Sequence record: DRR378314_2501 | Reading direction: 5' to 3' (one strand) | DNA: 60,508 nt | Shown: in pieces, positions 216 through 54,225 of the stretch | Position numbering within the stretch: the stretch's first letter is position 1 | Layout: each line of letters begins with the position of its first letter | The notes under the pieces: model-generated | Database searches by the model: none | Seen by the model: the letters and a program-made list of their open reading frames with translations, nothing else | What the model was told of the DNA's origin: nothing | Position numbers and translations under genes: made by a program

Positions 216-1253
216 TTAGTTTAATACCTTGAATTCGATACGCCTGTTCTTCGCGCGATTATCGGCAGTACTATTGCCTACAAGAGGCGCAGTTTCACCG
301 TAGCCGACTGCGACCAAGCGGGACTGATCGGCGCCTTTTGTGATCAGGTGCTTGGTGACAGAAACCGCTCTCTGCCGACTCAGCTCCAAATTCCAAGCGG
401 CTTTGCCCCACGCGTCTGTGTGGCCGCCTACTTCGATCTTTAGATCGGGACATCTGTTCACGATATCAGCCAATGCATCCAAAAATGCTTCGGACGTTTC
501 CGCCACGTCTGATGAATTTGCCGCAAAGTTCACGCTGCGACTTTGTGAGAGCACTTCAAAACGCCCCTCGCATTCGCCGCGGTTAAATGTTCCGTTGGTT
601 TCCAACGCGACGCTGGCGTTTGTTGTGGTTTCCTGGGTCATGGCTCCTGCGTTGGAGCCGTTTCTCTGAAAGTAGAGATCAAGGCTTACGATACCGACGG
701 GCGTGATGGTGACATTCGCCGCCTCTTCCAGTTTTTCCAATCCAGAAAGAAGGTCGAAATCCGCCAGCGACAGAATTATGGGTTGTACGGTTGAGACGTT
801 GACCGTGTCGGTGTCCAGCAATGTCAGGGCGACCCGCGTGGACAGTTCAACTGTCACACCGTGAAGCTCCAGTGTAACCGGCAACTCCACGGTCTTGCGG
901 CCCGCCTCTGCCAAGTCAGATATTTGAGCCGAGGAGATCTGTGCAGAGACGCGCGCCTGACTGTGTTTGAACGTCTCGAAGAACAGGAACCGCATGCGGA
1001 CGTTGCGGAGATCAATGTTGGTGTCCACTGAATCCAGGGCGACGGTAACATCGGCATTTCCCGTGGGGTCGATGGTGCCAGTGAAAGATGCAAATCCACT
1101 ATACTCAGCGATCGTACCCTTCTTCACGGACAGGAAGCCGATGGAAGAACGTTCGGTGGCCAGTGTCCAGCCGCGCTCAAGCGGATTTGCGGACGCCAGC
1201 TGTGGGAGAAGTAAAAAGTTCAATAAGAACAGTTGGCAAAGGCGTTTTCTCAT
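216..1253 (-). CDS. Exported YceI-domain + OmpA C-terminal-like (peptidoglycan-binding) protein
   Basis: Signal peptide; YceI-like region (W.L...S.IGF.S.K, VALDSVDTNIDLRNVRM); OmpA_C motifs VNFA..S, IEVGGHTD, NLELSRQRA..V, VGYGE..P, NRRIEF. Confidence 0.85.
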   Translation of the reverse strand: MRKRLCQLFLLNFLLLPQLASANPLERGWTLATERSSIGFLSVKKGTIAEYSGFASFTGTIDPTGNADVTVALDSVDTNIDLRNVRMRFLFFETFKHSQARVSAQISSAQISDLAEAGRKTVELPVTLELHGVTVELSTRVALTLLDTDTVNVSTVQPIILSLADFDLLSGLEKLEEAANVTITPVGIVSLDLYFQRNGSNAGAMTQETTTNASVALETNGTFNRGECEGRFEVLSQSRSVNFAANSSDVAETSEAFLDALADIVNRCPDLKIEVGGHTDAWGKAAWNLELSRQRAVSVTKHLITKGADQSRLVAVGYGETAPLVGNSTADNRAKNRRIEFKVLN

Positions 1254-1456
1254 TGTTCTTTATCCTTTTCTTTTCTGTCCGCTCGCTCTGTCAGCCCAGT
1301 CTAGATTAGCCCAGTCTAGCACTCTCGTTGTGGAAAAGTACCGTTGCATTGACACTTCGGTAGGCGCGATTTGCGAAGATAGATAAATTGCCGATCATGA
1401 TGGTGATATGGTGGGCCCCTATCATGGCGCGAATCGTATTTCTCGCCGCAACGGGG

Positions 1457-2938
1457 ATGATGTTTGTGCAACGCGCTTTGAGTACCGTGAAATTCTGGGT
1501 CGGGCTCTTGATCGTATTGGGCGCCACCGTTTGGAACACTGTGGTTCATGCGGGGGATCGTATGGCGCTCGTGATTGGAAATTCGTCCTACGGCTCGGTT
1601 CCCTCGTTGGAGAACCCGGTGCACGACGCTCAGTTGATTGCGGAGACGCTGGAAGCCATGGCGTTCGAGGTCACATTGTTGACCGATGCCAGTCAGGTGG
1701 ATCTGAAACGCGCCATTGCGCAGTTTGGGCGTAGCTTGCGGGAACGTGATGAAGATGCGGTTGGTCTGTTCTACTATGCTGGTCACGGTGTGCAAAGTTT
1801 TGGCAACAATTACTTGCTGCCTGTAGATGTGTCGCTGAGCGATGCGGCTGACCTAGATTTGGTTGCAATTGAGGCGCAGTCGGTGTTGAGACAGATGGCG
1901 TCCGCTCGCAATACCACCAACATTGTCATTCTGGATGCATGCCGGAACAATCCCTTCGAGAACGTGACCGAGCTGAACGACAATGGTTTGGCCGAGATGC
2001 AAGCGCCTACAGGCACATTTCTGGCCTATGCCACGGCTCCCGGTGCGGTTGCGCTGGATGGTACCGAAGGTAATAGTCCATTCACACAAGCGCTGGCGCG
2101 GGAAATGAAGGCTGCGAACCAACCCATCGAACAGGTTCTAAAGCGTGTCAGGCGCTCTGTGCTTGACCACACCGATGGGCGTCAGACTCCATGGGATACG
2201 TCGTCGTTGGTCAGTGATTTCGTATTCAATGCGGTTACATCCGACCGTGCTGCTGATGCCTCTGATGCTGTTATCGCGGAACGGCAATTGTGGAGCATGG
2301 CCCGAGACAGTCAGGATGTCGTCCAGTTGATGTTGTTCTTGCGCAGCTACGGCCAGAGTGCGTATGCGGATGATGCCAGGGCGTTATTGAAGCAGCTGTC
2401 GGGCAACCAGCAGGGATCTTCTGCTACCGATGAAACGGCGATGTTCGAAGCGGCACATAATGAAGCTGGAATTGCAGCTCTTGAGGCGTATCTCCTGACG
2501 TTTCCAGAAGGACGCTACACCGAGCTTGCGATGGTAGAGATTGCAGCGCGCAAGCGTGGCAGGGAAGAAGATCCAGATCTAGCACCCGCCGAAGGCATTG
2601 TAACGAGCCTCATGGACACGCCTTTGAGCAACCAGATCGAAAACGGCCCGATAACTTTTATCCGCAAGCTTGAGTCTGATCTGGAGCAGGTAAATGGCCT
2701 ATCTTTGGAAGAGCTGGTCACACAGTCACCGATGTTTCCCCCGATTGCAGGCCTTCCTGACGAATATTGGAAGGATCAATCCTGCAGCAACTGTCACACT
2801 TGGACACGGGATGCGCTCTGCACTCAGGCCAAGACTTATTTGACCAGCAATTTGCAACGGTCACTGTCGAAACAACACCCCTTTGGCGGTGCGATGAAAC
2901 AGGCGCTGCGCAGTTGGGCCGGCGGTGAGTGCGGTTGA
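1457..2938 (+). CDS. Caspase-family (peptidase C14) protein with signal peptide, helical repeats and a C-terminal CxxCH motif; start uncertain (1388-1460)
   Basis: RMALVIGNSSY, L.NP.HDA, FYYAGHG (catalytic His), ILDACRNNP (catalytic Cys), AYATAPG.VA.DG, SPFT.AL, QTPW; CSNCH at 2783-2797. Confidence 0.88.
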   Translation: MMFVQRALSTVKFWVGLLIVLGATVWNTVVHAGDRMALVIGNSSYGSVPSLENPVHDAQLIAETLEAMAFEVTLLTDASQVDLKRAIAQFGRSLRERDEDAVGLFYYAGHGVQSFGNNYLLPVDVSLSDAADLDLVAIEAQSVLRQMASARNTTNIVILDACRNNPFENVTELNDNGLAEMQAPTGTFLAYATAPGAVALDGTEGNSPFTQALAREMKAANQPIEQVLKRVRRSVLDHTDGRQTPWDTSSLVSDFVFNAVTSDRAADASDAVIAERQLWSMARDSQDVVQLMLFLRSYGQSAYADDARALLKQLSGNQQGSSATDETAMFEAAHNEAGIAALEAYLLTFPEGRYTELAMVEIAARKRGREEDPDLAPAEGIVTSLMDTPLSNQIENGPITFIRKLESDLEQVNGLSLEELVTQSPMFPPIAGLPDEYWKDQSCSNCHTWTRDALCTQAKTYLTSNLQRSLSKQHPFGGAMKQALRSWAGGECG

Positions 2939-2956: not shown

Positions 2957-4465
2957 TCACTGCGGGGGCGTCGTAACGACCAGGAAATACACCCATTCAC
3001 CCTTGAAATTTGCATGCGACGCGCGTGCACTGGATACAGCGCGTTGCAGATCTTCAAGGTACTCGACGGCCGTCTCTTGAATGGGTCGTGGTGTCTGTTC
3101 CGAAAACAACGGATGTGATGCTGCAAAAGCGACGGCGATTTCCTGACCGTAAGGGGGCGCAACGGTGATTTGGAGACCAGCGCCGGTCGCTGTGCGCGCG
3201 CCGACGTCTAGTTGGGAGTGCGGTGGTGCGCGAGTAAGAGGAGTTGTCGCATTCGGGATCAGATGCAGAACGGAACCACTGGCATCAAAATAGTCGACAT
3301 AGACATATGCCGGATATTCTGGCGTGGTGAGTGCGAAGTATAGCTGATCTCCTCCTGAGAAGTTCAAGACGCGCGCGTATGCGTCCGCCCCCATCAGCAG
3401 AGGATTCGTGATCTGGTCGTTGCTTTGAGGGAGACCTGCAGACTCTATCCCGGCGAGGATTCCACATTGCGGGCGTGGGAGCAGGCGCGTGCGATCTGAC
3501 AAAGTGATATCGGAGCCCATTTCCGCTTGGAGGGCAGCCAGAACCGGAGCGCGAAGCGTCTCGTCAGGTAAGTGGCCTCTCAAGTGCAACGTTGCAGTGT
3601 CGGGGTCGAAGGACAGCTGAAGTCGTGCACAGGGGAGGGTGGACAGATAGCCGGATAGCCCATCACGCAAGGTGCGGCCTTCCTCGCCGGCGTCCAGAAG
3701 ACGGCTGTAGGCTGCAAGGGATTGCGGGTCGACGTTTTGTCCTTCGGCCCCGGGCAGCGCAAAGCTGGCACGGATGGTGTCAATCGGAGCGTTTGCAATG
3801 CTTGCTTCGACCGTGGCGGATGACTTTGGTGCGGCCATTAGCACGTCAGCGGAAGTTTTGACTGTCCCAAGCGGCTCGCTGTCTGGTTCGTCGGTCTGAA
3901 TCGTCAGCGCAGCCGCAGGAGCCTGTGATACCTCAATATCAGGGCGTATCTTCGCGACAGGTATCTCAGGTGCGACGATCCGACCCTGTTTGATATGGTC
4001 CGGTGTGACGTCAGATGCGATGGCTGATGTGGCTGCGGGGGCAGCGAGTGGCGCCGTTTGTCCGCTCGGCTCGGAAACTACCGGGGCGGACGACAGGGAA
4101 GCAGACTCTATGTTTTCCACTCGCTCCCCGGCAGCGAAATGCGCCCTCACGTTGGATGCAGGCGCCGCAATAGCTTCAGCTCTGGTTGTTGGCACAGTAC
4201 CAGATTGCACGCTGTCGGTCGCAGCTGCTGCTTCTAGTAGGACATCCCCGCGCGCTGTGCTCAGAGTGGGCCGGTTGCGCGGAACGCTTTTGGACGTAAT
4301 CTGCATTTCGGCACGGTGCTCATCCTGTTTTACCGTAGGCCTGGGCTGTAAGCTGAGAAGGACCATGCCAATCAGAACGCAATTCGCGACGAACGAGCCC
4401 AAAACGCCGGCGCTCCAGATCAACAGCCCGTTGCGCTGGCCATATGGTTCGACTGCAAGCGTCAC
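2957..4465 (-). CDS. Membrane-anchored protein with Ala/Pro-rich linker and C-terminal DUF4384-like domain, in the TonB position of an exbBDD operon
   Basis: N-terminal TM helix (AGVLGSFVANCVLIGMVLL), about 200 aa low-complexity A/P/S/T linker, C-terminal GDQLYF..T....AYVYVDYFDASGSVLHLIPN...V.PPYGQE..VAFAAS.PLF; GTG start overlaps the exbD stop. Confidence 0.7.
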   Translation of the reverse strand: MTLAVEPYGQRNGLLIWSAGVLGSFVANCVLIGMVLLSLQPRPTVKQDEHRAEMQITSKSVPRNRPTLSTARGDVLLEAAAATDSVQSGTVPTTRAEAIAAPASNVRAHFAAGERVENIESASLSSAPVVSEPSGQTAPLAAPAATSAIASDVTPDHIKQGRIVAPEIPVAKIRPDIEVSQAPAAALTIQTDEPDSEPLGTVKTSADVLMAAPKSSATVEASIANAPIDTIRASFALPGAEGQNVDPQSLAAYSRLLDAGEEGRTLRDGLSGYLSTLPCARLQLSFDPDTATLHLRGHLPDETLRAPVLAALQAEMGSDITLSDRTRLLPRPQCGILAGIESAGLPQSNDQITNPLLMGADAYARVLNFSGGDQLYFALTTPEYPAYVYVDYFDASGSVLHLIPNATTPLTRAPPHSQLDVGARTATGAGLQITVAPPYGQEIAVAFAASHPLFSEQTPRPIQETAVEYLEDLQRAVSSARASHANFKGEWVYFLVVTTPPQ

Positions 4466-4875
4466 GGGACGGGAGCCGCGTCTGGCGATACGATAAGAAC
4501 GATGTCTTCAATGCCAAGGGCTTCGGCCTGTGAAATCAGTGGAAGAACATTTCTGAGCTCCGCGTCTTGATGGGCGTTTATGCGTAGCCGCAGGCCGGGG
4601 TCTGACCGCAGCCCTTCTGCGAGCAGGTCGTTGATGTTGCGAGGATCTACCTCTCTGCCGCCCAATGCGAGGTGGCCGTCTGCGGAGATGGACAGGGTTG
4701 CACCGCCAGCGGGTAAGTCCTGGCCCGTGTCGGCAGTGGGGGGCGCAACGTCGAAGGGTGCTGTGGCATCCATTCGGCCGATGAGCATGAAGAAGACCAG
4801 CAGGAAGAACACCACGTCGATCAGCGCCGTAGTCGGCTCGCCCTGTGCGCTGCGACTGGGGCGGCGTAAATTCAT
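4462..4875 (-). CDS. exbD: ExbD/TolR family biopolymer transport protein
   Basis: Real start MNLRRP at 4875 (ATGA overlap with upstream stop); TALIDVVFFLLVFFML TM motif with the essential Asp; LRINAH.DA...V. Confidence 0.88.
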   Translation of the reverse strand: MNLRRPSRSAQGEPTTALIDVVFFLLVFFMLIGRMDATAPFDVAPPTADTGQDLPAGGATLSISADGHLALGGREVDPRNINDLLAEGLRSDPGLRLRINAHQDAELRNVLPLISQAEALGIEDIVLIVSPDAAPVP

Positions 4876-5288
4876 TGATGGGCCTCCAGTCGCAGAACAC
4901 GCAGGTTCTTGACCCCGGCGGTTGCGGCTGCATCCAGAACCGAAACCAGAGCCTGTGTTCTCGTCGCGCCAGTGGGGAGGATCAACACCTGCGTCTGAGG
5001 GGAGCTGGCCAGTTGTGAGGACAGCGCTCCCTGCAGAGCGCCCATTCCAAGAGGGCGCCCCCGTATCGCGGGCTGACCATTTGCACCGAGGCGAATGATG
5101 ACTGTGTTGGCCGACGCAGGCGAGGCGCCTTGCGCAGGGAGCGACGCTTGCGGGCTGCGGGCCGGGATCATGTCGAGGTTCAGGTATGTGGAGGTGACCA
5201 TGAAGAAAACGAGCAGGATCAGTAGGACATCGACCATCGGGACCAACGATATGAGACCGGGAGGCCGGGCGGGGCGGGTCAGTTTCAT
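4872..5288 (-). CDS. exbD: ExbD/TolR family biopolymer transport protein (second copy)
   Basis: ISLVPMVDVLLILLVFFMVTS motif with the essential Asp; Q.LVSVLDAA..AG. Confidence 0.88.
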   Translation of the reverse strand: MKLTRPARPPGLISLVPMVDVLLILLVFFMVTSTYLNLDMIPARSPQASLPAQGASPASANTVIIRLGANGQPAIRGRPLGMGALQGALSSQLASSPQTQVLILPTGATRTQALVSVLDAAATAGVKNLRVLRLEAHQ

Positions 5289-5935
5289 GACGGGTCGCCT
5301 GTCGCTCCTCCGGGGTCCTGAGCGGCCTCTTCGGCAAGCATCAGGCGGCCGACAGCATTCTCGACGCTCTGGGCAACCCGTTCGATCCGGGCGGAGAACA
5401 GGCCGGATGCAATTGCTGCGGGAATGGCGACAACAAGACCCGCGGCCGTGGTCAGGAGTGCTTGCCAGATCCCGCCTGCAAGAAGCGAGGCATTGGCGGC
5501 GCCTTCAGCCAGTTCCAGTTCTTGAAAACTCTGAATCATGCCGAGCACGGTCCCCAGTAGGCCCAGCAACGGTGAAACCATGGCCGTAATTTCGAGCATG
5601 CGAATGCGCCGGCTCAGGGTGGAGAGTTCAGAGCTGCCACGGCGCTCGATTTCCGATTGCAGCAGGGCAGGCCGCACGCCCGCAACGAGCGCCTTCATGG
5701 CGAACGCCAGGATCCTGTCAGCTGGCGCGCCGTCACCAAGCTGCCGCATGGCTTCGGAACGTTTGCCCTGTTGCCATGTCCTGAGTATCCGGGTTCGGTT
5801 CTCCTCGCCCGACAGCACGGGCCAAAGCTCGATCAGCTTGACCACAATAACCGTGAGAGATGCGAGGGAGAGCAGGCCAAGAACCACCAAGATCGGCATG
5901 CCCGTTCCCATGTTGTCCAGGAGCTGGTTCATCAC
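5285..5935 (-). CDS. exbB: ExbB/TolQ/MotA family proton channel protein
   Basis: SPLLGLLGTVLGMIQSF and GIWQALLTTAAGLVVAIPA signature helices. Confidence 0.92.
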   Translation of the reverse strand: MMNQLLDNMGTGMPILVVLGLLSLASLTVIVVKLIELWPVLSGEENRTRILRTWQQGKRSEAMRQLGDGAPADRILAFAMKALVAGVRPALLQSEIERRGSSELSTLSRRIRMLEITAMVSPLLGLLGTVLGMIQSFQELELAEGAANASLLAGGIWQALLTTAAGLVVAIPAAIASGLFSARIERVAQSVENAVGRLMLAEEAAQDPGGATGDPS

Positions 5936-6357
5936 TACTTCACCAGGCGCGCATCAGTGCGTGATGCCAGATCGAGTATGCTGAAGCAGTCGATCTCGTC
6001 TTCATTCTGTGGCTGGCACTTTGTTATGTCGTGCAGCAGGATTTCCGAGATGTTGCTGCAATTCAGCTCTGGAATTTCAAAGAGTTTCAGTGTGGTGCGC
6101 GCGACGGGCAGGGGGGCGGCGTCGATTGATAGCAAGCGGTCGATGACGCCATCACCATCAAGCACCGCCAGCGACATTTCAAAGCCGGAAAAACTGTTGC
6201 CGGTCTCATTTTTGAACAGGAAAAACGCACGGCACCCGCCGCTTTCGATCTCTTCCGTCTTGTTGAGTTCGACAGTGAGGCGCTCATTTGCCATGACAGG
6301 TGATACTCCCAGAGCAATGGCGGCAATCAGGATGATCGATTTGAAAATTCTCTTCAT
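5935..6357 (-). CDS. Small exported protein with four Cys, directly upstream of exbB
   Basis: MKRIFKS... signal peptide ending VMA-N; LTVELNK.E....CR..F...N; stop abuts the exbB start. Confidence 0.7.
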   Translation of the reverse strand: MKRIFKSIILIAAIALGVSPVMANERLTVELNKTEEIESGGCRAFFLFKNETGNSFSGFEMSLAVLDGDGVIDRLLSIDAAPLPVARTTLKLFEIPELNCSNISEILLHDITKCQPQNEDEIDCFSILDLASRTDARLVK

Positions 6358-6419: not shown

Positions 6420-7265
6420 TCAAACGATGGCACCAAGCGCCGTTTCGATTCGGTCCATGACGACGCGCGCCTTGTCGTAATCACGCTGTTTCAGCAGGCG
6501 CGCGGCCACATGGACGGCACGGTCCAGCTTGGTCCGGTGGCTGCCCGGTACACGGCCGACCGAAGCGCGCAATTGCTTTGCCCGCTGAAGATCCGCGCCG
6601 AGAGTGCGACTGCGTCCCTCCCGATCCGCCCGCTTCATACTTGCATCTGCATCTTCACGATCCGCACCGATCCGGGCGACAGCTTGTTCGACGACAGTCA
6701 ACAGGGTTTGCGCTTCTTCCAGACGGCCTTCGTTGATGTGGCTGAGGGATTTCGACAGCCCCAGTTTCAGTTTGCGTTCCAGTGGGCCAGGCGCCTGCCC
6801 AATACGGGATTTGATTCTCTTTGCGCGTGCCAGCAGGGGGCGAACAAGTTTCTGATCGACGGAAGGAGTGCTCACTTCGTCCAGAGTGGTGACGCCATCG
6901 TCGCTTGTTGATTTTTCCGGCTTCAAACTGTCGAGGAGGTTGCCGCCGTCATCGCGAAACAGGACGTTCACCTTCGGCTTGTTGGCGCGCAGAAACTTCT
7001 TGAGGTTTGTAATCGCTTTGGTCGTAGCTTGTTCGCAGGTCATCTCCATTTCATCGGAGCGAACGACATAGGTGCCCCAAGTCATTGGAGACTTACCGCC
7101 TTCTTTTTTCAATAGTGGGCGCAATTGCTCAGGTTTGCTGCCGGGTTGGATCAGCAGCAAGGGGTCGCTGTTTCCATCCATGCAGAACGCGAAACTCGTG
7201 CGACGCTTGGCGCCTTCACGGACCATGGAGCGTATTTCGCTGCCATCTATTCGCGTCGGTTTCAT
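6420..7265 (-). CDS. Hypothetical basic protein with two C-terminal helical repeats; start 7265 preferred over 7334
   Basis: Long ORF, GGAG-type RBS before MKPTRID; divergent from tssA; no family recognised. Confidence 0.7.
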   Translation of the reverse strand: MKPTRIDGSEIRSMVREGAKRRTSFAFCMDGNSDPLLLIQPGSKPEQLRPLLKKEGGKSPMTWGTYVVRSDEMEMTCEQATTKAITNLKKFLRANKPKVNVLFRDDGGNLLDSLKPEKSTSDDGVTTLDEVSTPSVDQKLVRPLLARAKRIKSRIGQAPGPLERKLKLGLSKSLSHINEGRLEEAQTLLTVVEQAVARIGADREDADASMKRADREGRSRTLGADLQRAKQLRASVGRVPGSHRTKLDRAVHVAARLLKQRDYDKARVVMDRIETALGAIV

Positions 7266-7436
7266 GGCTGCAGTCTCCACCAAAGCTTCAAAACAATTGA
7301 CAAAGAGCATTCGACAAGGCTCACTTTGGGTCAAGTTATTGTTTTGTTGCTCGGTATTATTCGTTGCGGCATGCGTGGGATTGGTTCACAGTTCCAGTGG
7401 TACAAAAAACGCGTTGCCGACGGGGGTTAGTGAAGA

Positions 7437-18388: not shown

Positions 18389-19246
18389 GTGTCAGACATG
18401 ACCGCCAGCCCGACGTTCGGGAGCCGCGCATGGGCCCAAGCCGTAATTGAACGTCCTGCCGTGACCCATGCAATTCTTGGCGTGATCATCTTTAATGCCG
18501 TGACGCTTGGTCTTGGTACATCGGAAGTCGTGCGCACTCACTTTGGCGGATTGCTTGATGTCATCGACAGCATCGTGCTGACGATTTTCGTGGTTGAGCT
18601 TGCGCTGAAGCTCTATGCCTATGGGCTGCGTTTCTTTTCCTCCGCCTGGAATGTGTTTGATCTGGTCGTGGTTGCCGTTGGCATGCTGCCGGACCGGCAA
18701 GGATTGTCGGCGTTGCGAGGGTTGCGTGTGTTGCGCGCCATGCGATTGCTGTCGGTGATCCCGCAAATGCGTGCCGTGGTTCAGGCCCTTCTGGATGCGC
18801 TGCCCGGCATGGGGGCGGTGATCGTGATGATCTCGATCGTGTTCTACATTTTTGCAGTGATGGCGACGCTGATGTACGGGCCCGCATTTCCAGAGTGGTT
18901 CGGTACGCTTGGCCGATCACTCTATTCGCTGTTCCAGATCATGACACTGGAGAGTTGGTCGATGGGGATTGTGCGACCGGTGATGGAGGTTTTCCCCTAC
19001 GCCTGGGCGTTCTTTGTGCCATTCATTGTGGTGACCGCATTCTCTGTGCTCAATCTCTTCATCGGTTTGTTGGTCAATACCATGCAGTCCGCGGTGGAAG
19101 AGGAAACAGAGGCAGAAATTCACAAGTTGCGTGACCTGGTTAAGTCAGAAACGGACGTGGTGGGTGATCATGTTGTCGAATTGCGCGATGAGATCCGCGC
19201 GCTGCGGGCTGAAGTTGCAGCGATGAGGGAAGACAAAAATGGCTGA
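18389..19246 (+). CDS. Bacterial voltage-gated sodium channel (NaChBac/BacNaV family, Ion_trans)
   Basis: Six TM segments; S2 IFVVEL.LK, S3 WNVFD, S4 LRGLRVLRAMR (RxxRxxRxxR), pore helix and filter SLFQIMTLESWSMGIVRP, S6 LNLFIG, C-terminal coiled coil. Confidence 0.96.
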   Translation: MSDMTASPTFGSRAWAQAVIERPAVTHAILGVIIFNAVTLGLGTSEVVRTHFGGLLDVIDSIVLTIFVVELALKLYAYGLRFFSSAWNVFDLVVVAVGMLPDRQGLSALRGLRVLRAMRLLSVIPQMRAVVQALLDALPGMGAVIVMISIVFYIFAVMATLMYGPAFPEWFGTLGRSLYSLFQIMTLESWSMGIVRPVMEVFPYAWAFFVPFIVVTAFSVLNLFIGLLVNTMQSAVEEETEAEIHKLRDLVKSETDVVGDHVVELRDEIRALRAEVAAMREDKNG

Positions 19247-22200
19247 TAGCTCGCAAAAATTTGTTGCCCGTAATCGCGCACCACGTGTTCAGATTGAATA
19301 TGATGTCGAACTCTATGGTTCGGAGAAAAAGGTTCAGCTGCCCTTCGTTATGGGGGTCATGTCGGATCTGACAGGGAAATCGAAACAGCCTCAACCGGCA
19401 ATAGCGGACAGAAAGTTCCTTGAAATTGATGTCGACAATTTCGACGAACGGATGCGCTCCATGGCGCCACGCGCTGCCTTCAACGTTCCAAATACACTGA
19501 CTGGCGAAGGTAATATCGCAGTTGACCTCACGTTTGAGAGCATGGCCGATTTTACCCCCGGTGCCATCGCGTCCAAAGTGGATGCTCTACGGCCGCTTTT
19601 AGAGGCACGCCAACAGCTCGAGCAGCTGATGACGTATATGGATGGTAAATCCGGTGCCGAAGAACTGATCGAAAAAATCCTTAAGTCACCCGCATTGTTG
19701 TCATCGCTTGCAGGGGAAACAGACGAAGCGCGCGCAGAGGGCGAAGCTGCGTTGCAAGGGCTGCGTGAGATTGAACTGCCTGTCGAGGACTTGGGGCCGA
19801 CGCACCAGGACGTACTTGGGACGATGGAGGGGCAGGTATCGGAAGAGTTGCCATCCGAAGACCCCTCTATCGGGATTCTCGCCGGGCTGAGCGGCTCCGC
19901 CCCGAATGCGGATACAAAGGAGGATGACACCCGTGACATCCTGACTTCGCTCGCCTCGACTGCTCCAGAGGACAAGCCCGCGGCAACAGGTGTTGCGGAG
20001 ACTCTTTCGGACCTTGCTGCAGCAGCACCAGAGACGTCAGCTGAGGAGGATCGCAGCCAGGCTGTGCTGTCATCCCTGGCGGAGCAACGCACCGAGGTTT
20101 CTGAAGAAGACCGATCCATGGACGATGCGCTCAATGCGCTCGGAGATTCGGCAGATGCTGACATTCCGGATACTGACACGGCGGCGGAAATTCTGGGTAG
20201 TCTTACGCCTCCTGCCACGGCTGAAGACATCAATGAAGGAGACGGTTCAGCGGAAGTCCTTGCCGAATTGGCGACGCAGCAACCGCCGGCCCGGGACGCG
20301 CCTGTTGACGCGGATCAAGTTCTGCAAGGGCTTGATGCGCCCGAGGTCCCGGTAGCTGCCACAGCCGGTGTCGATGATGTCCTCGCAGGGCTGGACACCA
20401 TCGAAGAGGAAACGCCTGATCCAGAGATGGATTTGAGCACTGTTCTTGGTGAGTTCGAAGCGACAGAGGCGACAGAACACTCAAACTTCGATGAAGTTCT
20501 GTCAGGTCTGGAGCCTGCCGTCGTGGACGACGACGAGGCAGCGACGAACCTTGATGATTTGCTTGGAGAACTCGAGACGCCAGAGCCCGAACCTGATACG
20601 AAAGTTGCGGATGTGCTGGCTGATATTGATGTGGCAGCGGAGTCCGCTGAGGAAACCCAGCCCGACCTTACGACGATGCTAGATGATGTCCCCGCTGCGC
20701 AGGAGGAGGGTACCAGTGCAGAGGATGTGTTGCCAGGACTGGGCGCTGTGACCGAGGTCGCTGAGAGCAGTGATGTCGATCTCGAAGATCTGCTGGGAGA
20801 CACGCCGCCACCTGAAGCGGACACTGGCAGCGGTGCCGATGACACCTTGGCAGGGTTGGACATAGTTGAGGACGACGCGCCGAGCGCAGACCTCGACCTT
20901 GAGGATATGCTTGGCGATCTGGATATAGCCGAGCCAGAAGACGCGCTGGGTGCGGATGACATTCTGTCCTCGCTCGACCTTTCGGACGATGCGAGCGATG
21001 ATGGTGTTGATAGCGTCACCTCCGACGGGCTTTCAGGGTTGGTCGCAGATGATACCCCGACGCCTGATCCTTTAGCTGATGCAGAACTCTCACTGGATCT
21101 GGACGATCTGTTCAGCGATTCATCAGATACAAATTCCGGTCCCGCACAAGGCAGCGACCACGACGTCAATGACCTCGACCTTGATACGCAGATCCCGAGC
21201 GATAACGGTGCGCTTGATGATGAATTTGATCTCGATGCGCTGCTCGCAGATGAGCCAGCGACAGATGATACTACGACGCGCCGGGATGATTTGGTGGCGA
21301 TGGACGAGAAAACATCCGAGATCACCGATGTTCCGGCCGAGGCCGGCGCGGGGGATGGTCTGGATGATCTCCTGGAAGGTCTCGGAATTGACGAAAACCC
21401 GGGAGATGATGACGATGACCTCGATGCACTGTTCGGTGCTCTGGACCAAGAAGTCGCGGCGGATGATAGCAGCGATTCTGATGCTCTTGACGCCCTCTTG
21501 GGGGATCTGGAAGGCGACGTAGAAGACCTTGATGTCATGTTGGAGGACCAGAGCATAGCAACAGGGTCCGAGCAGCCCGGAGCTGGAATACAGCACGAAC
21601 CGGAGCTTGCCTACGGCACAATGTCCACAGCGCGCCCAAATCCGCAGAAACTGGAACGCAAGCGGTTTCGGATGGCGGTTTTCGGTGATTTCACCGGCCG
21701 CGCGGCCAAGGGACAATTGGAGATCGGAGACACCCTGGCAAACCGCAAACCTATGGTTCTTGATCCCGATACCTTTGAAGAGGTGATTGAGAGCTTCGCC
21801 ACTGAGCTGGTCCTGCCAATCGGCAAGGATGGCGCAGGGATTTCGGTCAAACTCGGGGAGTTCGATGATCTCCATCCGGATGAGCTTTTTGACAACGTGG
21901 AGCTATTTGCCGAACTGATCAGCCTGCGCGCACAACTTCAGAATGGTGTCACCAAAGATCGCGCAATGACAACGCTCACTACATGGGCCGAAGCGCATGG
22001 TACGCCCGCGCGCGCGCCGAAATCCCGATCTGGTGGCAATGTGGTGCCCGCGGACAAACGGCTCAGTGATTTCCAAATGTTGATCGGGAACAGTGCGAAT
22101 AGCCTCCGTACGGCCTCTCCGGTCGAGGAGATGCTTGCGCGAGTGGTTGGTCCGCACATTCGCGCATTGCCCGCCCCGAACCTTGGCGCAATGCAGGAAG

Positions 22201-23312
22201 CGGTGGATCTGGCACTTTCCGATGCGATGCGGTTGGTGCTGCACCATCCGGAGTTCCAGTTGATCGAAGCCCAGTGGCGTTCGCTGGATCTTATGCAGCG
22301 TTCGGTTGAGGTCGATGATACGCTTGAAGTCATGCTGTATGACGTTTCGGCAGAGGAGCTCGCCGCGGATCTCGCCACTCATGAAGATCTATCCGAATCC
22401 GGGTTTGTACGGCTGCTGACGGAAGCCCCAATGGATGAAGAGAATGGACGTGGGGCCTATTCGGCGATGCTCGGCCTCTATACGTTTGAGGAAACCCCGC
22501 CTCATGCGGAACTTTTGGGGCGTATAGCGCGCGTGGCTGCGCATGTGGATGCGCCTTTCCTGGCTGCAATCACTCCGGGATTTTGGGACACGGTCAAATT
22601 GGATCGTCCCAAAGTCGTAGCTGACGCCTGGAACACTCTGATGGGCATGCCCGAAGCTGGACACCTTGGCCTGTTGACGCCGCGTTTCCTGTTGCGGCGC
22701 CCCTATGGTGCAAAGAGCGAACCTATCGATCCATTTGATTTCGAAGAGTTTACCCAATCCGCAGGCTTGCGTGGTATGCTTTGGGGAAATCCTGTCGTGC
22801 TGGCTGGGATATTGATGGCGAAGTCCTTCAAGGAGAATGGTCCTTCGCTTCAGCTGGGCTCTATTATGTCGCTCGGCGAGATGCCGTATCACTACGTGAA
22901 TGATCGCTTTGGCGATCAGGTCGCGCTGCCCTGTACTGAACGCAACGTGGATCTGGACAAGATCGCTATTGCAAAAGAGCGCGGGTTCATGCCGATTGCC
23001 TCTGTCCGCGGACGCGACGAAATTCGATTGACCTCGTTCAATTCTCTGCGCGGAGATATGCTTCTCGGCCCTTGGATCGGAGAACCGGCACCCCAGCCAT
23101 CGCCGCCTGACCCAAGGCAAGAGCAGACCACATCAGATCCAGTGAACACAGGCGACGAGGATGATCTGGGACTGGATTTGGATTTTGACGACAACGGTGA
23201 GAGCGCCGATGATGATCTCGACGCGCTGCTCGCTGGTTTTGATGATGATGACGATACTGATTTAGACGGCGATATCGATGCCGACCTTGAGGCACTTTTG
23301 AATGACCTATGA
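19239..23312 (+). CDS. Giant sheath fusion protein: TssB + acidic repeat linker + TssB-like + truncated TssC-like domain + acidic tail
   Basis: aa 1-158 about 80% identical to TssB at 8575 (manual alignment); from about aa 807 RFRMAVFGDFTGR...LDPDTFEEV...FDDLHPDEL (TssB-like); LVLHHPEFQLIEAQWRSL, AAHVDAPFL, PRFLLRRPYG (TssC-like). Confidence 0.85.
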   Translation: MADSSQKFVARNRAPRVQIEYDVELYGSEKKVQLPFVMGVMSDLTGKSKQPQPAIADRKFLEIDVDNFDERMRSMAPRAAFNVPNTLTGEGNIAVDLTFESMADFTPGAIASKVDALRPLLEARQQLEQLMTYMDGKSGAEELIEKILKSPALLSSLAGETDEARAEGEAALQGLREIELPVEDLGPTHQDVLGTMEGQVSEELPSEDPSIGILAGLSGSAPNADTKEDDTRDILTSLASTAPEDKPAATGVAETLSDLAAAAPETSAEEDRSQAVLSSLAEQRTEVSEEDRSMDDALNALGDSADADIPDTDTAAEILGSLTPPATAEDINEGDGSAEVLAELATQQPPARDAPVDADQVLQGLDAPEVPVAATAGVDDVLAGLDTIEEETPDPEMDLSTVLGEFEATEATEHSNFDEVLSGLEPAVVDDDEAATNLDDLLGELETPEPEPDTKVADVLADIDVAAESAEETQPDLTTMLDDVPAAQEEGTSAEDVLPGLGAVTEVAESSDVDLEDLLGDTPPPEADTGSGADDTLAGLDIVEDDAPSADLDLEDMLGDLDIAEPEDALGADDILSSLDLSDDASDDGVDSVTSDGLSGLVADDTPTPDPLADAELSLDLDDLFSDSSDTNSGPAQGSDHDVNDLDLDTQIPSDNGALDDEFDLDALLADEPATDDTTTRRDDLVAMDEKTSEITDVPAEAGAGDGLDDLLEGLGIDENPGDDDDDLDALFGALDQEVAADDSSDSDALDALLGDLEGDVEDLDVMLEDQSIATGSEQPGAGIQHEPELAYGTMSTARPNPQKLERKRFRMAVFGDFTGRAAKGQLEIGDTLANRKPMVLDPDTFEEVIESFATELVLPIGKDGAGISVKLGEFDDLHPDELFDNVELFAELISLRAQLQNGVTKDRAMTTLTTWAEAHGTPARAPKSRSGGNVVPADKRLSDFQMLIGNSANSLRTASPVEEMLARVVGPHIRALPAPNLGAMQEAVDLALSDAMRLVLHHPEFQLIEAQWRSLDLMQRSVEVDDTLEVMLYDVSAEELAADLATHEDLSESGFVRLLTEAPMDEENGRGAYSAMLGLYTFEETPPHAELLGRIARVAAHVDAPFLAAITPGFWDTVKLDRPKVVADAWNTLMGMPEAGHLGLLTPRFLLRRPYGAKSEPIDPFDFEEFTQSAGLRGMLWGNPVVLAGILMAKSFKENGPSLQLGSIMSLGEMPYHYVNDRFGDQVALPCTERNVDLDKIAIAKERGFMPIASVRGRDEIRLTSFNSLRGDMLLGPWIGEPAPQPSPPDPRQEQTTSDPVNTGDEDDLGLDLDFDDNGESADDDLDALLAGFDDDDDTDLDGDIDADLEALLNDL
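19715..21560 (+). repeat. Degenerate protein-level repeats (about 20-aa period, core h-D/E-D/E-h-L-x-x-L) forming the acidic linker; boundaries approximate
   Basis: TRDILTSL, MDDALNAL, AAEILGSL, ADQVLQGL, VDDVLAGL, FDEVLSGL, LDDLLGEL, LEDLLGD, LEDMLGDL, LDDLLEGL, LDALLGDL and others. Confidence 0.75.
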
Positions 23313-35622: not shown

Positions 35623-37806
35623 TCACGGTTGCGCGGTGGTCAGTATGCTGCTGTCGAGCGACAGAACCCGCCCAGCGTCACCAGTCGCGCTCTTCTGAAG
35701 CGCTTCTGCAAAACTTGCGGCACTTTCAGCAGTGGGGCGCATCCCATCGAACAAAGGTTGAGCGGAATGCAGAATTAAAATTTTGCTCTTGCCCAAAGTG
35801 CTGTCATCGACCTTGAAAGCAATGCCTCCTGTATCATCCCGTGCATCAAGACTATAGGCGACGCGGATCGACAACTCCCCGGTTTTCCCGTCTCTCAATT
35901 TCTCTACGGCCTGGGTTTGACGGTTGATGTTGGGCAGTAGGTGAAACACGTTGCCCGTAACGTCCAAGATGGACACGGTCAGGAACCCGTCGGTCAGGCT
36001 TGCTGGCAAGACAACGTCGATTACCGGATTCTCACCTACAAAAAAGCGGCCCGAAGGGTTGGTGTCACCGTTCGCACCATTGGCATATGTCACGTCTATC
36101 CCGCCTTTAGGCGCCTTCGGGAGATGTTGTTCGACAATGCAGAGCGCAGGATTCAGCACTTCGAGATCAAGATTGACTGATCGCCCTTTTGCGACGGCTG
36201 TAAGCGCGTCAAAAAGACGAAGTTGGGTCTCCGTACCGGCCACTTGACCGACCACTCGGAGCGCCTCGTCGGGAGCATATCCGGTTCCCCCCGATGATCC
36301 TTGCAGAACCAAAGGGCCACAGTCCGAATGGTTGGCCACGACAGCGGCAGGGATCTGGCGGTCCAACAACGGGAGCTCAAACGCGATGGTGACAATTCCC
36401 ACCAATGCACCGGGTAAATCTCCTCCGAAGAACCCGTCAAGATCAGCAAGCAGTTCTGCGTTCGACGTTGTGCCCGAGAGCTTGGCCTGATTGTTCTCGA
36501 CCACAAAGCGCCAATCTTCAAGTTCCGCCAGCGGCTCGAGAGTAAAAAGGACATCGCGCAGCCACGTATCAGCGATTTCTCCCGACGCCAGTTCCAGTTC
36601 GCCCTCGTCGACCAATTCCATCAGCGCCGCATGCCCGTCCTCACTCGGAACGTTGCCCGCAGCGCGAACCGGTCCGCCAGCACTGCGTTCAACGATCAGG
36701 CGAAAGGGCTCGGCGGCGGGGTAGTTTGGTGAGAACACGCCGTCCAGCGCACCGCTCATCCAGGCACCGGCTCCACCAAAGCCCACAATAAGAACCGCAA
36801 TGAGCAAGCTCAGTTTCCCACGACCACGCCCACGTTGCGCAGCCGCCATTGGAGCAGGATCTTGCGGTGGATTGACTGTGGAGCGCGGGGTGAGGATCGT
36901 GGCGTCATTCACCGGTTCGGAAGGGGTTCCAATCAGGGCGTCAAGCGGGTCGCCGGTTTGGGCAGTCTCACTTGATCGGGCATCGGAAGCATGGAGAAAT
37001 GCAAGGACCTCACCGGCGGTTTGAAAACGATCCTGAGGGCTTGGTGCGCACATCCGTTCGATCAGTGTCCGGAACGGGTCAGGAAGATCGTCGGTCTCCA
37101 ACGGTTTCTTCTTGTTCTCGACCACTTCCATCGGATTGGCGCCCAACGAAGGGGGGCTGCCGCGGAAGTTCGCGAGAAGGAGCGCCCCCAATGAATAGAT
37201 ATCCGAGCGGGCATCGGTCTGACCGCTCATTTGTTCGGGAGCCGCATAGGCATATTTGCCGGCAAACTCGTTTCCGACGATCGTCTCGGCACCGGGATTT
37301 GTATCCTTCGCAATGCCGAAATCGATGATAACCGCCTGTTCCGGATCTCCATCGCGCAGAATGATGTTGTCGGGGCTTAGGTCTCGGTGGACAATTTTTC
37401 GTTTGTGCGCTGCCTGGAGCCCTTCGCTCACCCGTCGACAGATCGTCAACAGATCCGTCACCGGCATGGGACCGTTCTTCAACTTTCTGTCCAGCCCAGG
37501 TCCGTCGATATAGTCCATCAGAAGATAGATGCGCCCATCCGGAGTTCGGTGATTTTCCGAATAGCGCACAACGGAATCGTGCCTGATTTCCCGGATGTTC
37601 TCTTCGCGCGCCATCAAGACGGTGAAGTCTTCGTTGCCCGAAAACTCCTGCTTCAGAACTTTCAAGGCAACGGTGTTTCCGGAAATTTCTGAACGAGCCT
37701 TATAAACCTCAGACGTACCGCCGCGACCTAGTAGGGCCTCGATGCGATAGGTATTGTTCAGCAAATCACCGGGTTCGAACATATCCCCGGGTCGGGAGCC
37801 GATCAT
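35623..37806 (-). CDS. ppkA: Membrane Ser/Thr protein kinase (PpkA-like) with periplasmic region ending in a DUF4384-like domain
   Basis: LGRGGTSEVY, VALK, HRDLSPDNI, IDFG, YAAPEQ, SDIYSLG; one TM helix; C-terminal GFLTVSILDVTGNVFHLLPN. Confidence 0.88.
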   Translation of the reverse strand: MIGSRPGDMFEPGDLLNNTYRIEALLGRGGTSEVYKARSEISGNTVALKVLKQEFSGNEDFTVLMAREENIREIRHDSVVRYSENHRTPDGRIYLLMDYIDGPGLDRKLKNGPMPVTDLLTICRRVSEGLQAAHKRKIVHRDLSPDNIILRDGDPEQAVIIDFGIAKDTNPGAETIVGNEFAGKYAYAAPEQMSGQTDARSDIYSLGALLLANFRGSPPSLGANPMEVVENKKKPLETDDLPDPFRTLIERMCAPSPQDRFQTAGEVLAFLHASDARSSETAQTGDPLDALIGTPSEPVNDATILTPRSTVNPPQDPAPMAAAQRGRGRGKLSLLIAVLIVGFGGAGAWMSGALDGVFSPNYPAAEPFRLIVERSAGGPVRAAGNVPSEDGHAALMELVDEGELELASGEIADTWLRDVLFTLEPLAELEDWRFVVENNQAKLSGTTSNAELLADLDGFFGGDLPGALVGIVTIAFELPLLDRQIPAAVVANHSDCGPLVLQGSSGGTGYAPDEALRVVGQVAGTETQLRLFDALTAVAKGRSVNLDLEVLNPALCIVEQHLPKAPKGGIDVTYANGANGDTNPSGRFFVGENPVIDVVLPASLTDGFLTVSILDVTGNVFHLLPNINRQTQAVEKLRDGKTGELSIRVAYSLDARDDTGGIAFKVDDSTLGKSKILILHSAQPLFDGMRPTAESAASFAEALQKSATGDAGRVLSLDSSILTTAQP

Positions 37807-37851: not shown

Positions 37852-38418
37852 TCAGCCTAGTGCTTGGAATTCTACGCGCCGGTTCTCATCGGCACGGGGG
37901 TCGGCAGGATTGAACGGTGCAGTCTCTCCCATTCCGATGGCCTTCAGCGACTCGGCCGTTATCCCGCAGTCACTTACCAGATGCCGCCGCACTTCTTGCG
38001 CGCGCAGGAGCGATAGGCGTTCGTTATACGTGACCGACCCGGAGCTATCGGTGTGGCCGATGATCTGGAACACGGTCCCATCCATGACCTTCATCGATTC
38101 GCACATGTTTGCCAGTTTCGGCTTCTGATCATCACGAAGGGTGGCACTGTCAAAGTCAAAGGAGATCTGTACGTTGATCTGCGTCTCCGATTCCACTGCA
38201 TTGTACTCTTCGGATGCTGCGGCGATCGTAGTTGCACCGGTCTCTTCAGCAGCGGTCTCGCTATCGGTAGCGTTTGGCACGATCACCAGACCACGGGTCT
38301 TTTGCTTCTTGAAGGCCTCAGTGATTTCTTCGACGGACAGATCCTCGGCAGCCAAAGGCGTGCTCAAGCAGATTGCGGCGGTGAAAATCGACAGTGCCAA
38401 AGTGCGGAACTGGACCAT
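37852..38418 (-). CDS. Exported OmpA C-terminal-like peptidoglycan-binding protein
   Basis: Signal peptide; ISFDFDSA.L, IIGHTDSSG...YN..LS..RA, IG.GE, ENRRVEF. Confidence 0.9.
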   Translation of the reverse strand: MVQFRTLALSIFTAAICLSTPLAAEDLSVEEITEAFKKQKTRGLVIVPNATDSETAAEETGATTIAAASEEYNAVESETQINVQISFDFDSATLRDDQKPKLANMCESMKVMDGTVFQIIGHTDSSGSVTYNERLSLLRAQEVRRHLVSDCGITAESLKAIGMGETAPFNPADPRADENRRVEFQALG

Positions 38419-38595
38419 GAATACGCCCTCCCATATAATTCCACTTTAGTTGAGCAGAGTTTATACTACCCCTGTCACTGTGCCAATGGTCACGGGCCAG
38501 GCCTCCATCGAAACAGAGCGATTACACGCATATAAATAGGCAGGATTGCGTTTCCATCAAAATTGCATCCAAACCATCAGACTTTAAGGACGATC

Positions 38596-39438
38596 ATGAA
38601 GGTCATTCCCGCCATTATCATAGCTGTCGGCCTCATCGGCGCCTCCGCCCTTTGGTTTGGACTATCCTACCTGTTCAATGAGCAGGGATATGGAAGCGGC
38701 GCGGTGGATTCAGAGGCCCGGATCGACATCGAGCTCCTGCGTCAACAGCTGGAAGATACACAGGTAAAACTGGATGACCTGCAAACGGCACTCGGCGCAC
38801 TCTCGACGCGGAACACGCCGGTTGCCCCATCGCCGAACCTTCAGGACGAAGAAGACAGCCTACTGCGCCAGACTGGTCCGAATGCTATTTTGGACTCCTA
38901 TGCGCAGGTGGTTCTGATTGCCGATCGGAGGAACGTGAATGATGGACTGAAAGTCGCAGGTGGAACCTATCTTTCGGAGAAGCTCGGCCGGCCACGCGAC
39001 AATCTGACAGATGATTGCCAGCCGATGACAAACCAGAGACTGAAGGACAAGCTGGTTCTCGAACAAGTTGGTCCCATTCGGGTGCGTATGCTTACGCCTG
39101 CAGTCGAGAGTTTGAAAGTGGTGTTCGCAAACATCCAAAAAGCGGATCCGGACCTCTACGAGCGGATCAACACGGCCGGATCCCTCTGTGTGCGCCGCAT
39201 CCGGGGCACACAGAACTCACTTTCGACTCACAGCTATGGCCTCGCCGTAGATCTGAACATCGATGGTCGCCTGGACACCCTGGGGGATGGAAAAACTCAA
39301 CTTGGCCTGACGATACTCGCCGACTTTTTCAAAGACGAAGGTTGGGTCTGGGGCGCAGGCTTCGGGCGCGAGGATAGCATGCATTTCGAGATCAGCCGAC
39401 GGCAACTGGATTTGTGGTTGGCCGAGGGACTGCTCTGA
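38596..39438 (+). CDS. Membrane-anchored M15-family zinc peptidase (peptidoglycan endopeptidase/carboxypeptidase, TagX-like)
   Basis: N-terminal TM and coiled coil; R.IRG....STHSYGLAVDLN (SxHxxGxAxD), W.WG..F...DSMHFE. Confidence 0.85.
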   Translation: MKVIPAIIIAVGLIGASALWFGLSYLFNEQGYGSGAVDSEARIDIELLRQQLEDTQVKLDDLQTALGALSTRNTPVAPSPNLQDEEDSLLRQTGPNAILDSYAQVVLIADRRNVNDGLKVAGGTYLSEKLGRPRDNLTDDCQPMTNQRLKDKLVLEQVGPIRVRMLTPAVESLKVVFANIQKADPDLYERINTAGSLCVRRIRGTQNSLSTHSYGLAVDLNIDGRLDTLGDGKTQLGLTILADFFKDEGWVWGAGFGREDSMHFEISRRQLDLWLAEGLL

Positions 39439-39445
39439 AATTCCC

Positions 39446-53381: not shown

Positions 53382-54225
53382 TGCACCCGCAAGGCAGTAA
53401 TGTCACCCATCGGCAAAGCAGAAGTGTCACTCTCCTCGCATAAGGCAGCGAGGACGAGCGGACATGGGATGGGTGATGATGAGTGAGTGCGAGTTGAACC
53501 GCGTTGAGGTTCTGGCGCAGGTCAATGACGGCCGATTGACAGTTGATAACGCGGCGAACCTGCTGGATCTGACACGGCGGCAAATTTTCCGGCTTCTGAA
53601 GCGATACCGCCAGGACGGCGCATCCGCGATCCGTCACAACGCGCGCGGCAAGCCTCCGAACAACCGGATCCACAACGCGAAGCGCGACTATGCCCTGAGC
53701 CTGATCAAAGAGAATTACCCGGATTTCGGCCCGACACTGGCAACTGAGATGCTGGCTGAGCATCACGGGATCAAGGTCTCCCGCGAGACCTTGCGCAAAT
53801 GGATGATCAAAGCCGGCCTTTGGTTATCACGCAAACAGCGCCGGACGTTTCACCAGCCGCGTCTGCGCCGGGAATGCTTTGGCGAGCTAATCCAGATTGA
53901 CGGCTCAGATCACCGCTGGTTTGAAGATCGTGCGCCACCCGGCACCTTGCTCGTCTTCATCGATGACGCGACCAGCACCTTGATGGAACTTCGCTTTGTG
54001 AAGGACCGTTTCAACGCCAAGTTTGCCAAGGCCCCAACTGACCTGTCAATGTTGCCATGCCTCGCATAACAAAGGGCTCAAACCTGCATTCAGTCTATTG
54101 ATCCCACAAGGCTTATCAGCCCTTCGATATTTGAGGTCTCCGGGCTGAAAAGCCTTGTTCCTGTTGCGCTAGGCGGTGACGTTTCTGCTTTGCGCAATCG
54201 GTGACATTTCTGGATAGCGTTTACA
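53382..54225 (+). mobile_element. Internally deleted IS1202-family (formerly ISNCY) insertion sequence, 844 bp
   Basis: 25-bp imperfect terminal IRs (TGCACCCGCAAGGCAGTAATGTCAC vs reverse complement of right end TGTAAACGCTATCCAGAAATGTCAC, 18/25); inner repeats at 53413-53430 and 54176-54193; flanks TATCA / TATTA. Confidence 0.8.
53464..54069 (+). pseudogene. Truncated IS1202/ISNCY-family DDE transposase
   Basis: MGWVMMSE.EL.RVEVL, Y.DFGPTLA.E.L, GELIQIDGS.H.WFE.R, LLVFIDDATS; then jumps to FNAKFAK.P and stops, so most of the catalytic core is missing. Confidence 0.88.

Follow-up and report, generated by a model that had tools for sequence, protein, structure and literature searches.

A Ton-type motor cassette with a PpkA-related arm tip beside a type VI secretion cluster: a possible energy-coupled input to the kinase switch in Rhodobacteraceae

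Introduction

What does a Ton-type motor do beside a type VI secretion system (T6SS) when the protein in the position of TonB does not carry the TonB C-terminal domain? The question is raised by DRR378314_2501, a stretch of 60,508 nucleotides (hereafter, the window), in which an exbB-exbD-exbD operon and a TonB-like transducer, here called the arm, occupy positions 2957-5935 next to a T6SS cluster. The T6SS is usually described as driven by sheath contraction and ClpV, without a proton motor. An earlier note on this DNA had proposed a transducer driven by proton-motive force (PMF) and repurposed for signalling or T6SS envelope assembly instead of nutrient uptake. Here, we find that the arm tip and the periplasmic module of the cognate T6SS kinase, PpkA, are paralogues, and that the arm co-occurs with the T6SS in a sample of Rhodobacteraceae genomes. 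We suggest that a Ton-type motor has taken on a new role and feeds the PpkA-PppA-Fha-TagF switch through this common module, as an input that is optional and coupled to energy, a reading to which we assign a probability of about 0.5.

Results

A five-gene motor cassette

Relatives of the arm are encoded on 239 stretches of the GTDB. The synteny counts given below come from the best 80 of these, nearly all from roseobacters, and each denominator comprises the loci with enough flank. In the window, five coupled genes lie in the following order:

5935-6357, minus strand: secreted 140-aa protein, first cassette gene; no Pfam or NCBIfam match; upstream of exbB in 69/69 loci
5285-5935, minus strand: ExbB/TolQ-type motor subunit (exbB); MotA_ExbB PF01618, E=1.5e-30
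4872-5288, minus strand: exbD1, with Asp20 in the transmembrane (TM) helix; ExbD PF02472, E=4.7e-21
4462-4875, minus strand: exbD2, with TM Asp20; ExbD PF02472, E=2.2e-18
2957-4465, minus strand: TonB-like transducer (arm), 502 aa, with TM anchor, D-box-like strand, Ala/Pro linker, and BON-like and DUF4384 tip

All junctions from the 140-aa gene to the arm are overlapping stop and start codons, and exbB-exbD-exbD precedes the arm in 70/70 loci. The Pfam matches and the Asp20 of each ExbD bear out the overlapping exbB-exbD-exbD genes, with a TM Asp in both ExbDs, that the earlier note had described. The NCBIfam models for TolQ, TolR, ExbB and ExbD score the cassette proteins far below their cut-offs. 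The 140-aa protein, of the 'Tat pathway signal sequence domain protein'/IrmA-like kind, has four conserved Cys residues; its atlas neighbours (0.97, and 0.95 for IrmA) serve as a lead only.

T129, T163, P122 and P172 of ExbB align with T145, T178, P138 and P187 of Escherichia coli TolQ, residues whose roles in TolQ/ExbB have been described (PMC12215075), and all four are invariant in 64/64 homologues. Asp20 is likewise invariant in ExbD1 (73/73) and ExbD2 (70/70). At the transducer docking site in ExbB TM1, composed of Ser34 and Trp38 (PMC12215075), the Ser is retained in 63/64 homologues, and the equivalent of E. coli Trp38 is Leu in 43/64 and Trp in 11/64. The Trp is also absent from all 14 ExbBs of true TonB operons from the same bacterial family, and we rejected its absence as a sign of a dead motor on this ground. 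Because of the conserved residues, we regard motor coupling as well supported. ExbB, ExbD1 and ExbD2 very probably form a 5:2 motor with an ExbD heterodimer, which would bind the arm as in Ton and Tol; complex formation and proton use are what we infer from these sequences.

A TonB-like arm with a different tip

The arm comprises the following elements, all on the minus strand:

4352-4432, minus strand: TM helix, residues 12-38, with W17 and S24-x3-N28-x6-V35 (family consensus S-x3-H-x6-L); from the model and homologues
4292-4306, minus strand: D-box-like alternating strand, residues 54-58, 26 residues past the His/Asn
3776-4240, minus strand: disordered Ala/Pro/Ser linker, residues 76-230; from composition and low predicted local distance difference test (pLDDT) scores
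3440-3685, minus strand: BON-like domain, residues 261-342, with invariant C279 and C334; BON_like match below cut-off, and model
2969-3370, minus strand: DUF4384 immunoglobulin (Ig)-like β-sandwich, residues 366-499; PF14326 above cut-off

The arm has one TM helix, with a hydropathy peak at residues 21-39 and a modelled helix at 12-38, which holds the motif S24-F-V-A-N28. Among the 120 best of 463 homologues, S24 is kept in 110 and L35 occurs in 91, whilst 99 have His and 13 have Asn at position 28; the complete arm open reading frames (ORFs) from genome loci give the same picture (Ser in 71, His in 65 and Asn in 7 of 72). In a strict motif test on 150 representatives at 50% identity, 115 carry S-x3-H and 10 carry S-x3-N (125 together); of the others, 7 have a TM helix without the motif and 18, several of them truncated, fall below the hydropathy cut. 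The Ser at the fourth position of the SHLS motif is not conserved in the arm homologues. By this comparison, the Asn of the window arm is a minority variant of the conserved TonB/TolA-type S-x3-H. The earlier note was right that Asn is present, and its statement that Asn can substitute for His20 of TonB agrees with published work (bioRxiv 2022.09.26.509584); the Asn is, however, a minority substitution of the canonical His and not a defining feature. As a mark of a special mechanism, it was rejected, since most homologues have His.

At exactly 26 residues past the His, an alternating hydrophobic, D-box-like strand is found in 104 of the 139 representatives with the TM motif in class I, the operon class of the window, as compared to 50 of 417 control linker windows at any offset; the criterion is a pattern match only, with the motif defined as in PMC10907165. 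The linker follows. Residues 76-240 consist of 22% Ala, 10% Pro and 11% Ser, with pLDDT mostly below 50, and across the 125 representatives the linker contains 27% Ala and 14% Pro and varies in length from 120 to 448 aa, with both arm ends conserved.

The tip differs from that of TonB. DUF4384 (PF14326) matches residues 369-452 with 33.9 bits (cut-off 27), and BON_like matches residues 293-330 with 20.4 bits, below the cut-off of 24.1. The Pfam scan of the arm returned no TonB_C, TonB_2, TolA or vWA match; the same scan detects TonB_C in 11/11 arms of the true Ton operons (class III, see below). The AlphaFold2 model, built from 88 sequences, shows low confidence to about residue 231, an α-β-β-α-β-α domain at 261-342 and a β-sandwich at 366-499. 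In the widest fold search, residues 264-329 resembled the periplasmic domains of CdsD and YscD (Z 6.7 and 6.4, root mean square deviation 2.2 and 2.3, 62 residues aligned), and residues 344-502 resembled many Ig-like folds (Z 5.3-6.4); these Z values are middling. No TonB_C chain appeared among the top 50 of the wide fold searches, which does not by itself exclude a TonB_C fold. Foldseek returned nothing at E<=0.001 from the PDB, and the sequence search for a solved structural relative of the arm found none. Taken together, the Pfam, hydropathy and model data agree with the earlier account of a protein in the tonB position with a single N-terminal TM helix carrying S-x3-N, an Ala/Pro spacer and DUF4384 in place of TonB_C. 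That account was correct but incomplete: it overlooked the gene at 5935-6357 that opens the cassette, as well as the BON-like domain and the connection to the kinase described next.

The arm tip is a paralogue of the PpkA periplasmic module

The kinase gene lies at the far end of the T6SS cluster:

35623-37806, minus strand: T6SS Ser/Thr kinase PpkA; Pkinase; homology to the arm tip in the periplasmic module at its C-terminus (about 35626-36369)

The arm profile matches PpkA residues 592-706 with E=2.8e-8. In hhalign comparisons, the class I tip aligns with the window-type kinase module over 194 columns at 93% probability (E=3e-7), rising to 96% (E=3e-9) with deeper profiles, and with another T6SS kinase at 99.9%; shuffled controls for the tip-kinase comparison reached at most 0.35%. 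The link is visible only by profiles, as the pairwise BLASTP match between the arm and PpkA is weak (E=0.005). Thus, the arm tip and the cognate kinase's periplasmic module are paralogues. In a search of 80 genomes for the kinase module, from which class II genomes were left out, the window-type module was present in 45 of the 46 class I genomes; in the 46th, a T6SS kinase carries DUF4384. The occurrence of DUF4384 on proteobacterial kinases and cyanobacterial caspases has already been noted in the literature.

In other bacteria, inputs that differ between lineages, TagR or RtkS, activate PpkA by way of its periplasmic domain (PMC6082577, PMC13584744), and family scans recognised no input of these types in the window. 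A complex prediction for the tip (228-502) and the periplasmic part of PpkA (362-727), made without alignments, scored 0.00, which is neither support nor counter-evidence.

Linkage to type VI secretion

The cassette is divergent from the T6SS cluster:

7437-35604, plus strand: T6SS cluster with tssA-tssB-tssC-hcp-tagJ-tssEFG-clpV, an ion channel, a long TssBC fusion, vgrG, fha, tssKLM, tagF and pppA

Family scans of the window revealed no tssJ in this cluster. All seven window genes longer than 600 aa encode T6SS proteins, the kinase or CheA. In the genome loci, tssA/B/C is divergent from the cassette in 63/63 cases. Distant plasmid records place the cassette inside the T6SS, directly before tssA, or at the ppkA-tagF-tssM end; in one distant plasmid arrangement it has no T6SS gene within 15 kb, and the cassette is also carried by a cluster that has tssJ.

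To measure co-occurrence, we used 401 genomes from the family of one locus, the Rhodobacteraceae, counting strong tip matches and setting aside three weak ones. The class I arm is present in 46 and TssC in 110 of the genomes, and 45 of the 46 arm genomes are TssC-positive; in the one that is not, ppkA adjoins the arm. For 37 of the 46 arms, TssC or the kinase is no more than 50 kb away; another 5 sit on short contigs or at contig ends, and the remaining 4 have no such linkage.

A tblastn search of the window with two receptor and five TonB_C queries returned neither a TonB-dependent receptor nor TonB_C, and the same queries were positive in three control loci. The Pfam scan covered window ORFs up to about 49.6 kb, and those past it were covered by eye and by this tblastn search. 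Similarly, 96 class I loci contained no true tonB, TonB_C or receptor by tblastn, and a true TonB is encoded elsewhere in 4/5 genomes tested. The absence of a receptor from the window, reported by the earlier note, therefore extends to the homologous operons. Synteny and co-occurrence support the T6SS link that the note had drawn, and the motor probably serves the T6SS cluster.

Three classes of operon

Relatives of the 140-aa protein are found in 161/401 genomes. We took 40 distant relatives, 20 picked for nearness to TssC and 20 not, and 34 of the 40 head an exbB operon. In class III, the fifth gene encodes a true TonB (TonB_C in 11/11 tested), and receptors or haem genes lie nearby. In class II, it encodes a TM helix with the His motif, a linker and a tip without a Pfam match; these operons mostly lie between clpV and ppkA, with the kinase within 2 kb of the cassette in 24/32 loci. 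The class II profile finds 32 genomes, of which 31 are TssC-positive and 18 were used to build it; among the 12 that were neither in the profile nor picked for T6SS proximity, 11 have TssC. No genome in the sample has both class I and class II. Taken together, class I and II arms occur in 76 of the 110 TssC genomes and in 2 of the 291 TssC-negative ones, and in both of the latter the kinase adjoins the arm.

The class II tip is modelled with the same order of elements as class I, BON-like and then Ig-like. It aligns with the periplasmic module of the class II kinase at 99.5-99.7%, as compared to at most 8% across classes; class I and class II tips align with each other at 3-8% probability over 184 colinear columns, so that their homology is not established. 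In the class II and class III operons examined, Asn stands in place of Asp in the second ExbD, and such motors would, judging from sequence, hold one protonatable Asp. The TM3 Pro of ExbB is absent in 31/31 class II proteins. In the ExbB tree, class I and class II each form one side of a branch, and a joint clade of the two is not rejected (p-AU 0.41, 42 of 81 rows), with the TolQ outgroup on a very long branch. The common gene layout suggests that the class I ExbB descends from haem Ton operons, a descent that the tree does not show.

Six T6SS-type loci (L233, L234, L235, L236, L176 and L179) have the 140-aa gene without exbB-exbD-exbD-arm. In L233-L236, this gene lies immediately beside a gene for a class II kinase or kinase module, an arrangement that would fit a deletion of the motor.

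Relation to known systems

The closest known arrangement is the Ton system (ExbB-ExbD-TonB), above all the 'secreted protein-exbB-exbD-exbD-tonB' operons found close to haem and iron receptors in Rhodobacteraceae, which share with the cassette the five-gene layout, the motor residues, the TM S-x3-H, the D-box-like strand and the Pro-rich linker. In contrast, the cassette arm has the BON-like and DUF4384 domains in place of TonB_C, no receptor lies nearby, the cassette is linked to the T6SS, and both of its ExbDs keep Asp at the position where the second ExbD of the class III operons examined has Asn. Tol-Pal (TolQ-TolR-TolA) is alike in its homologous motor, its TM motif and its role outside import. 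However, the cassette has two different ExbD/TolR proteins, neither tolB nor pal, and no TolA C-terminal domain; its TolQ and TolR scores are far below cut-off, a separate TolQ is present in the genomes, and it is flanked by T6SS genes, by a caspase gene and by a YceI-OmpA fusion that scores below the Pal cut-off.

An arm of the TonB type that bears a foreign tip is not without precedent, since Williams-Jones et al. (2025) predicted force transducers tipped with a vWA domain (PMC12204202). As described there, these also combine a TolQ-like gene, two heterologous TolR-like genes and an SHLS-type arm whose tip is not TonB_C. The cassette tip is BON-like and Ig-like DUF4384 rather than vWA, and the cassette is linked to the T6SS and the kinase; the main text of that paper makes no mention of type VI secretion. 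TagQRST of Pseudomonas aeruginosa and RtkS of Serratia would be alike in position, as periplasmic, cluster-encoded and lineage-specific inputs to the T6SS kinase. No sequence relation between them and the cassette was found: they consist of a lipoprotein, a periplasmic protein and an ABC-type complex, or of a soluble protein, whereas the cassette encodes a proton motor, and their action has been shown by experiment, whereas the role of the cassette is deduced.

In the literature on the T6SS, ExbB/TonB, DUF4384 with ExbD, and roseobacters or alphaproteobacteria, covered mostly at the level of listings and exclusive of subscription journals and the supplements of papers whose main text was checked, no description of the cassette was found. 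The main texts of two roseobacter T6SS papers mention neither ExbB nor TonB, and the main text of a 2026 review of T6SS accessory factors contains neither of these nor 'proton motive'.

Neighbouring genes

Three further genes accompany the cassette:

6420-7334, minus strand: unlabelled protein upstream in the same direction, a variable part of the unit; no family match; 54/66 loci
1388-2938, plus strand: secreted protein of the caspase family, with CxxCH at its C-terminus; arranged tail-to-tail with the arm; PF00656; 59/74 loci
216-1253, minus strand: YceI-OmpA_C fusion, a frequent neighbour; PF04264 and PF00691; 59/72 loci

The His/Cys dyad of the caspase is intact (57 and 59 of 59 homologues), and the CxxCH haem-binding motif is present in 59/59; a haem-c-bearing periplasmic metacaspase is possible. 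Next to ppkA, at 37852-40984, lie genes for an OmpA_C protein, an M15 peptidase and a caspase-Sel1-PG-binding protein; in other gene orders, this set is found at the flank of the cassette. Stand-alone DUF4384-OmpA-caspase sets without motor genes occur at three loci (L085, L138 and L139), two of them in TssC-negative genomes. At L082, L125 and L130, large adhesin-like genes (with an MBG domain in L082 and an ORF of 2223 aa in L125) and caspases adjoin the cassette.

Within the T6SS cluster, 19239-23312 (plus strand) encodes a 1357-aa TssB/TssC fusion with a long spacer, matching the roseobacter 'TssCL' (PMC9515649). Between clpV and this fusion, 18389-19246 (plus strand) encodes a voltage-gated-type ion transport protein (PF00520), possibly another ion-coupled T6SS element. 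A short ORF at 53464-54069 (plus strand), transposase-like by eye, parts the T6SS/chemotaxis/molybdate block (GC 0.57) from a sugar ABC region (GC 0.62).

Discussion

The input to the PpkA switch is the most likely job of the motor, because the arm tip is a paralogue of the PpkA module and because a second lineage, class II, repeats the pairing with its own kinase. We propose that ExbB, ExbD1, ExbD2 and the 502-aa arm act as a Ton-type proton motor, ExbB5-ExbD1-ExbD2, in which the arm would dock on ExbB through its S-x3-H/N helix and on the ExbD pair through the D-box-like strand. The long linker would transmit force to the BON-like and DUF4384 tip. The energised tip may pair with the periplasmic module of PpkA, or may pull on an envelope ligand read by both modules, and its input to the PpkA-PppA-Fha-TagF switch would set when or where the T6SS assembles; we infer both the target of the tip and the direction of its effect. 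The distribution, with the arm nested within the kinase and the kinase within the T6SS, indicates that the motor is optional, and it may be an accessory that takes the position which TagQRST has in Pseudomonas and RtkS has in Serratia. In a bolder and more tentative form, most sampled T6SS-bearing Rhodobacteraceae (76/110) might possess a dedicated 5:2 proton motor whose arm, tipped with a copy of the module of its kinase, uses the PMF to engage or release PpkA; membrane energy, or mechanical contact with the envelope, would then gate firing.

Several observations weigh against the proposed input to PpkA. DUF4384 also accompanies caspase and OmpA proteins in TssC-negative genomes and occurs on cyanobacterial caspases, and the common domain may therefore mean a common type of ligand rather than a common pathway. 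The motor is dispensable, as 34/110 TssC genomes have neither arm, and 18 of these 34 nevertheless hold the window-type kinase module. In 4 of the 46 genomes, all of which do hold a T6SS, the cassette is intact but its surroundings consist of unrelated genes, and about 9 kb around it contain no T6SS gene. In addition, the Fisher P of 7e-28 for the association of arm and TssC is overstated, because the genomes are related, and the 80 loci used for synteny are the closest 80 of the 239.

Among the alternatives, mechanical work for T6SS assembly is unlikely, yet it survives best. The motor would pull peptidoglycan or outer-membrane partners, such as the OmpA_C proteins and the M15 peptidase, and would thereby open or anchor the place of the membrane complex in systems from which TssJ is often missing, and the kinase would have the tip domain merely through localisation to the same envelope site. 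No tssJ was seen in the window, roseobacter T6SS1 clusters lack tssJ (PMC9515649), the OmpA_C and peptidase genes travel with the cluster, and BON-like domains are found in secretion-system rings. However, the tssJ-bearing cluster also has the cassette, the arm-less T6SS genomes (34/110) speak against an assembly role, and the closest neighbour of class II is the kinase and not tssKLM. Of the two roles that the earlier note had left side by side, the data thus favour signalling, through the PpkA module, over envelope assembly.

Somewhat more doubtful is that the motor serves a periplasmic caspase/OmpA/DUF4384 module, for envelope stress or surface-protein processing, which sits beside the T6SS and travels with the island. 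The frequency of the tail-to-tail caspase and the YceI-OmpA fusion, the caspases flanking many class II cassettes, the DUF4384-OmpA-caspase units of TssC-negative genomes, and the description of DUF4384 as an accessory domain of caspases (PMC7475262) are all in its favour. Nevertheless, the adjacent caspase is absent from 15/74 loci while tssABC is kept in 63/63, the two caspase-OmpA-DUF4384 units of TssC-negative genomes have no motor genes in their loci, and only 2/291 TssC-negative genomes have an arm.

Import is improbable. The Ton motor would energise an unlinked receptor that takes up a metal-scavenging protein secreted by the T6SS; the first four genes are those of haem and iron Ton operons, and TonB-dependent receptors are known to take up metals via T6SS effectors. 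Against this, the receptor-binding TonB_C is missing, the 96 class I loci have no receptor, and a true TonB is encoded elsewhere in most of the genomes tested. A transducer repurposed away from nutrient uptake, as the earlier note had it, is supported by the same absence of tonB and receptor, together with the conserved TM motif and the invariant motor residues. Least probable of all is a non-energised scaffold or decaying remnant, in which the proteins assemble but conduct no protons: the Asn for His in the window arm, the missing ExbB Trp38 equivalent and the T6SS loci that keep only the first gene are in line with it, but both Asp and both Thr residues are invariant in 64-73 homologues, the true Ton ExbBs of the family also lack the Trp, and TonB with His20Asn is functional.

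If the bolder form is true, the threonine-phosphorylation pathway would have, in this cassette, an input of a third kind, and, within the literature searched, a Ton-type motor would for the first time have a task in type VI secretion. The cassette would also give DUF4384 a first role and widen the tasks of Ton/Tol-type motors past import, division and gliding. The proposal is directly testable through the invariant ExbD Asp in culturable carriers, such as Leisingera and Ruegeria. Conserved in about two-thirds of the T6SS-positive genomes in a family that is abundant in the sea and in soil, the cassette would add an energy-coupled layer of control to type VI secretion.

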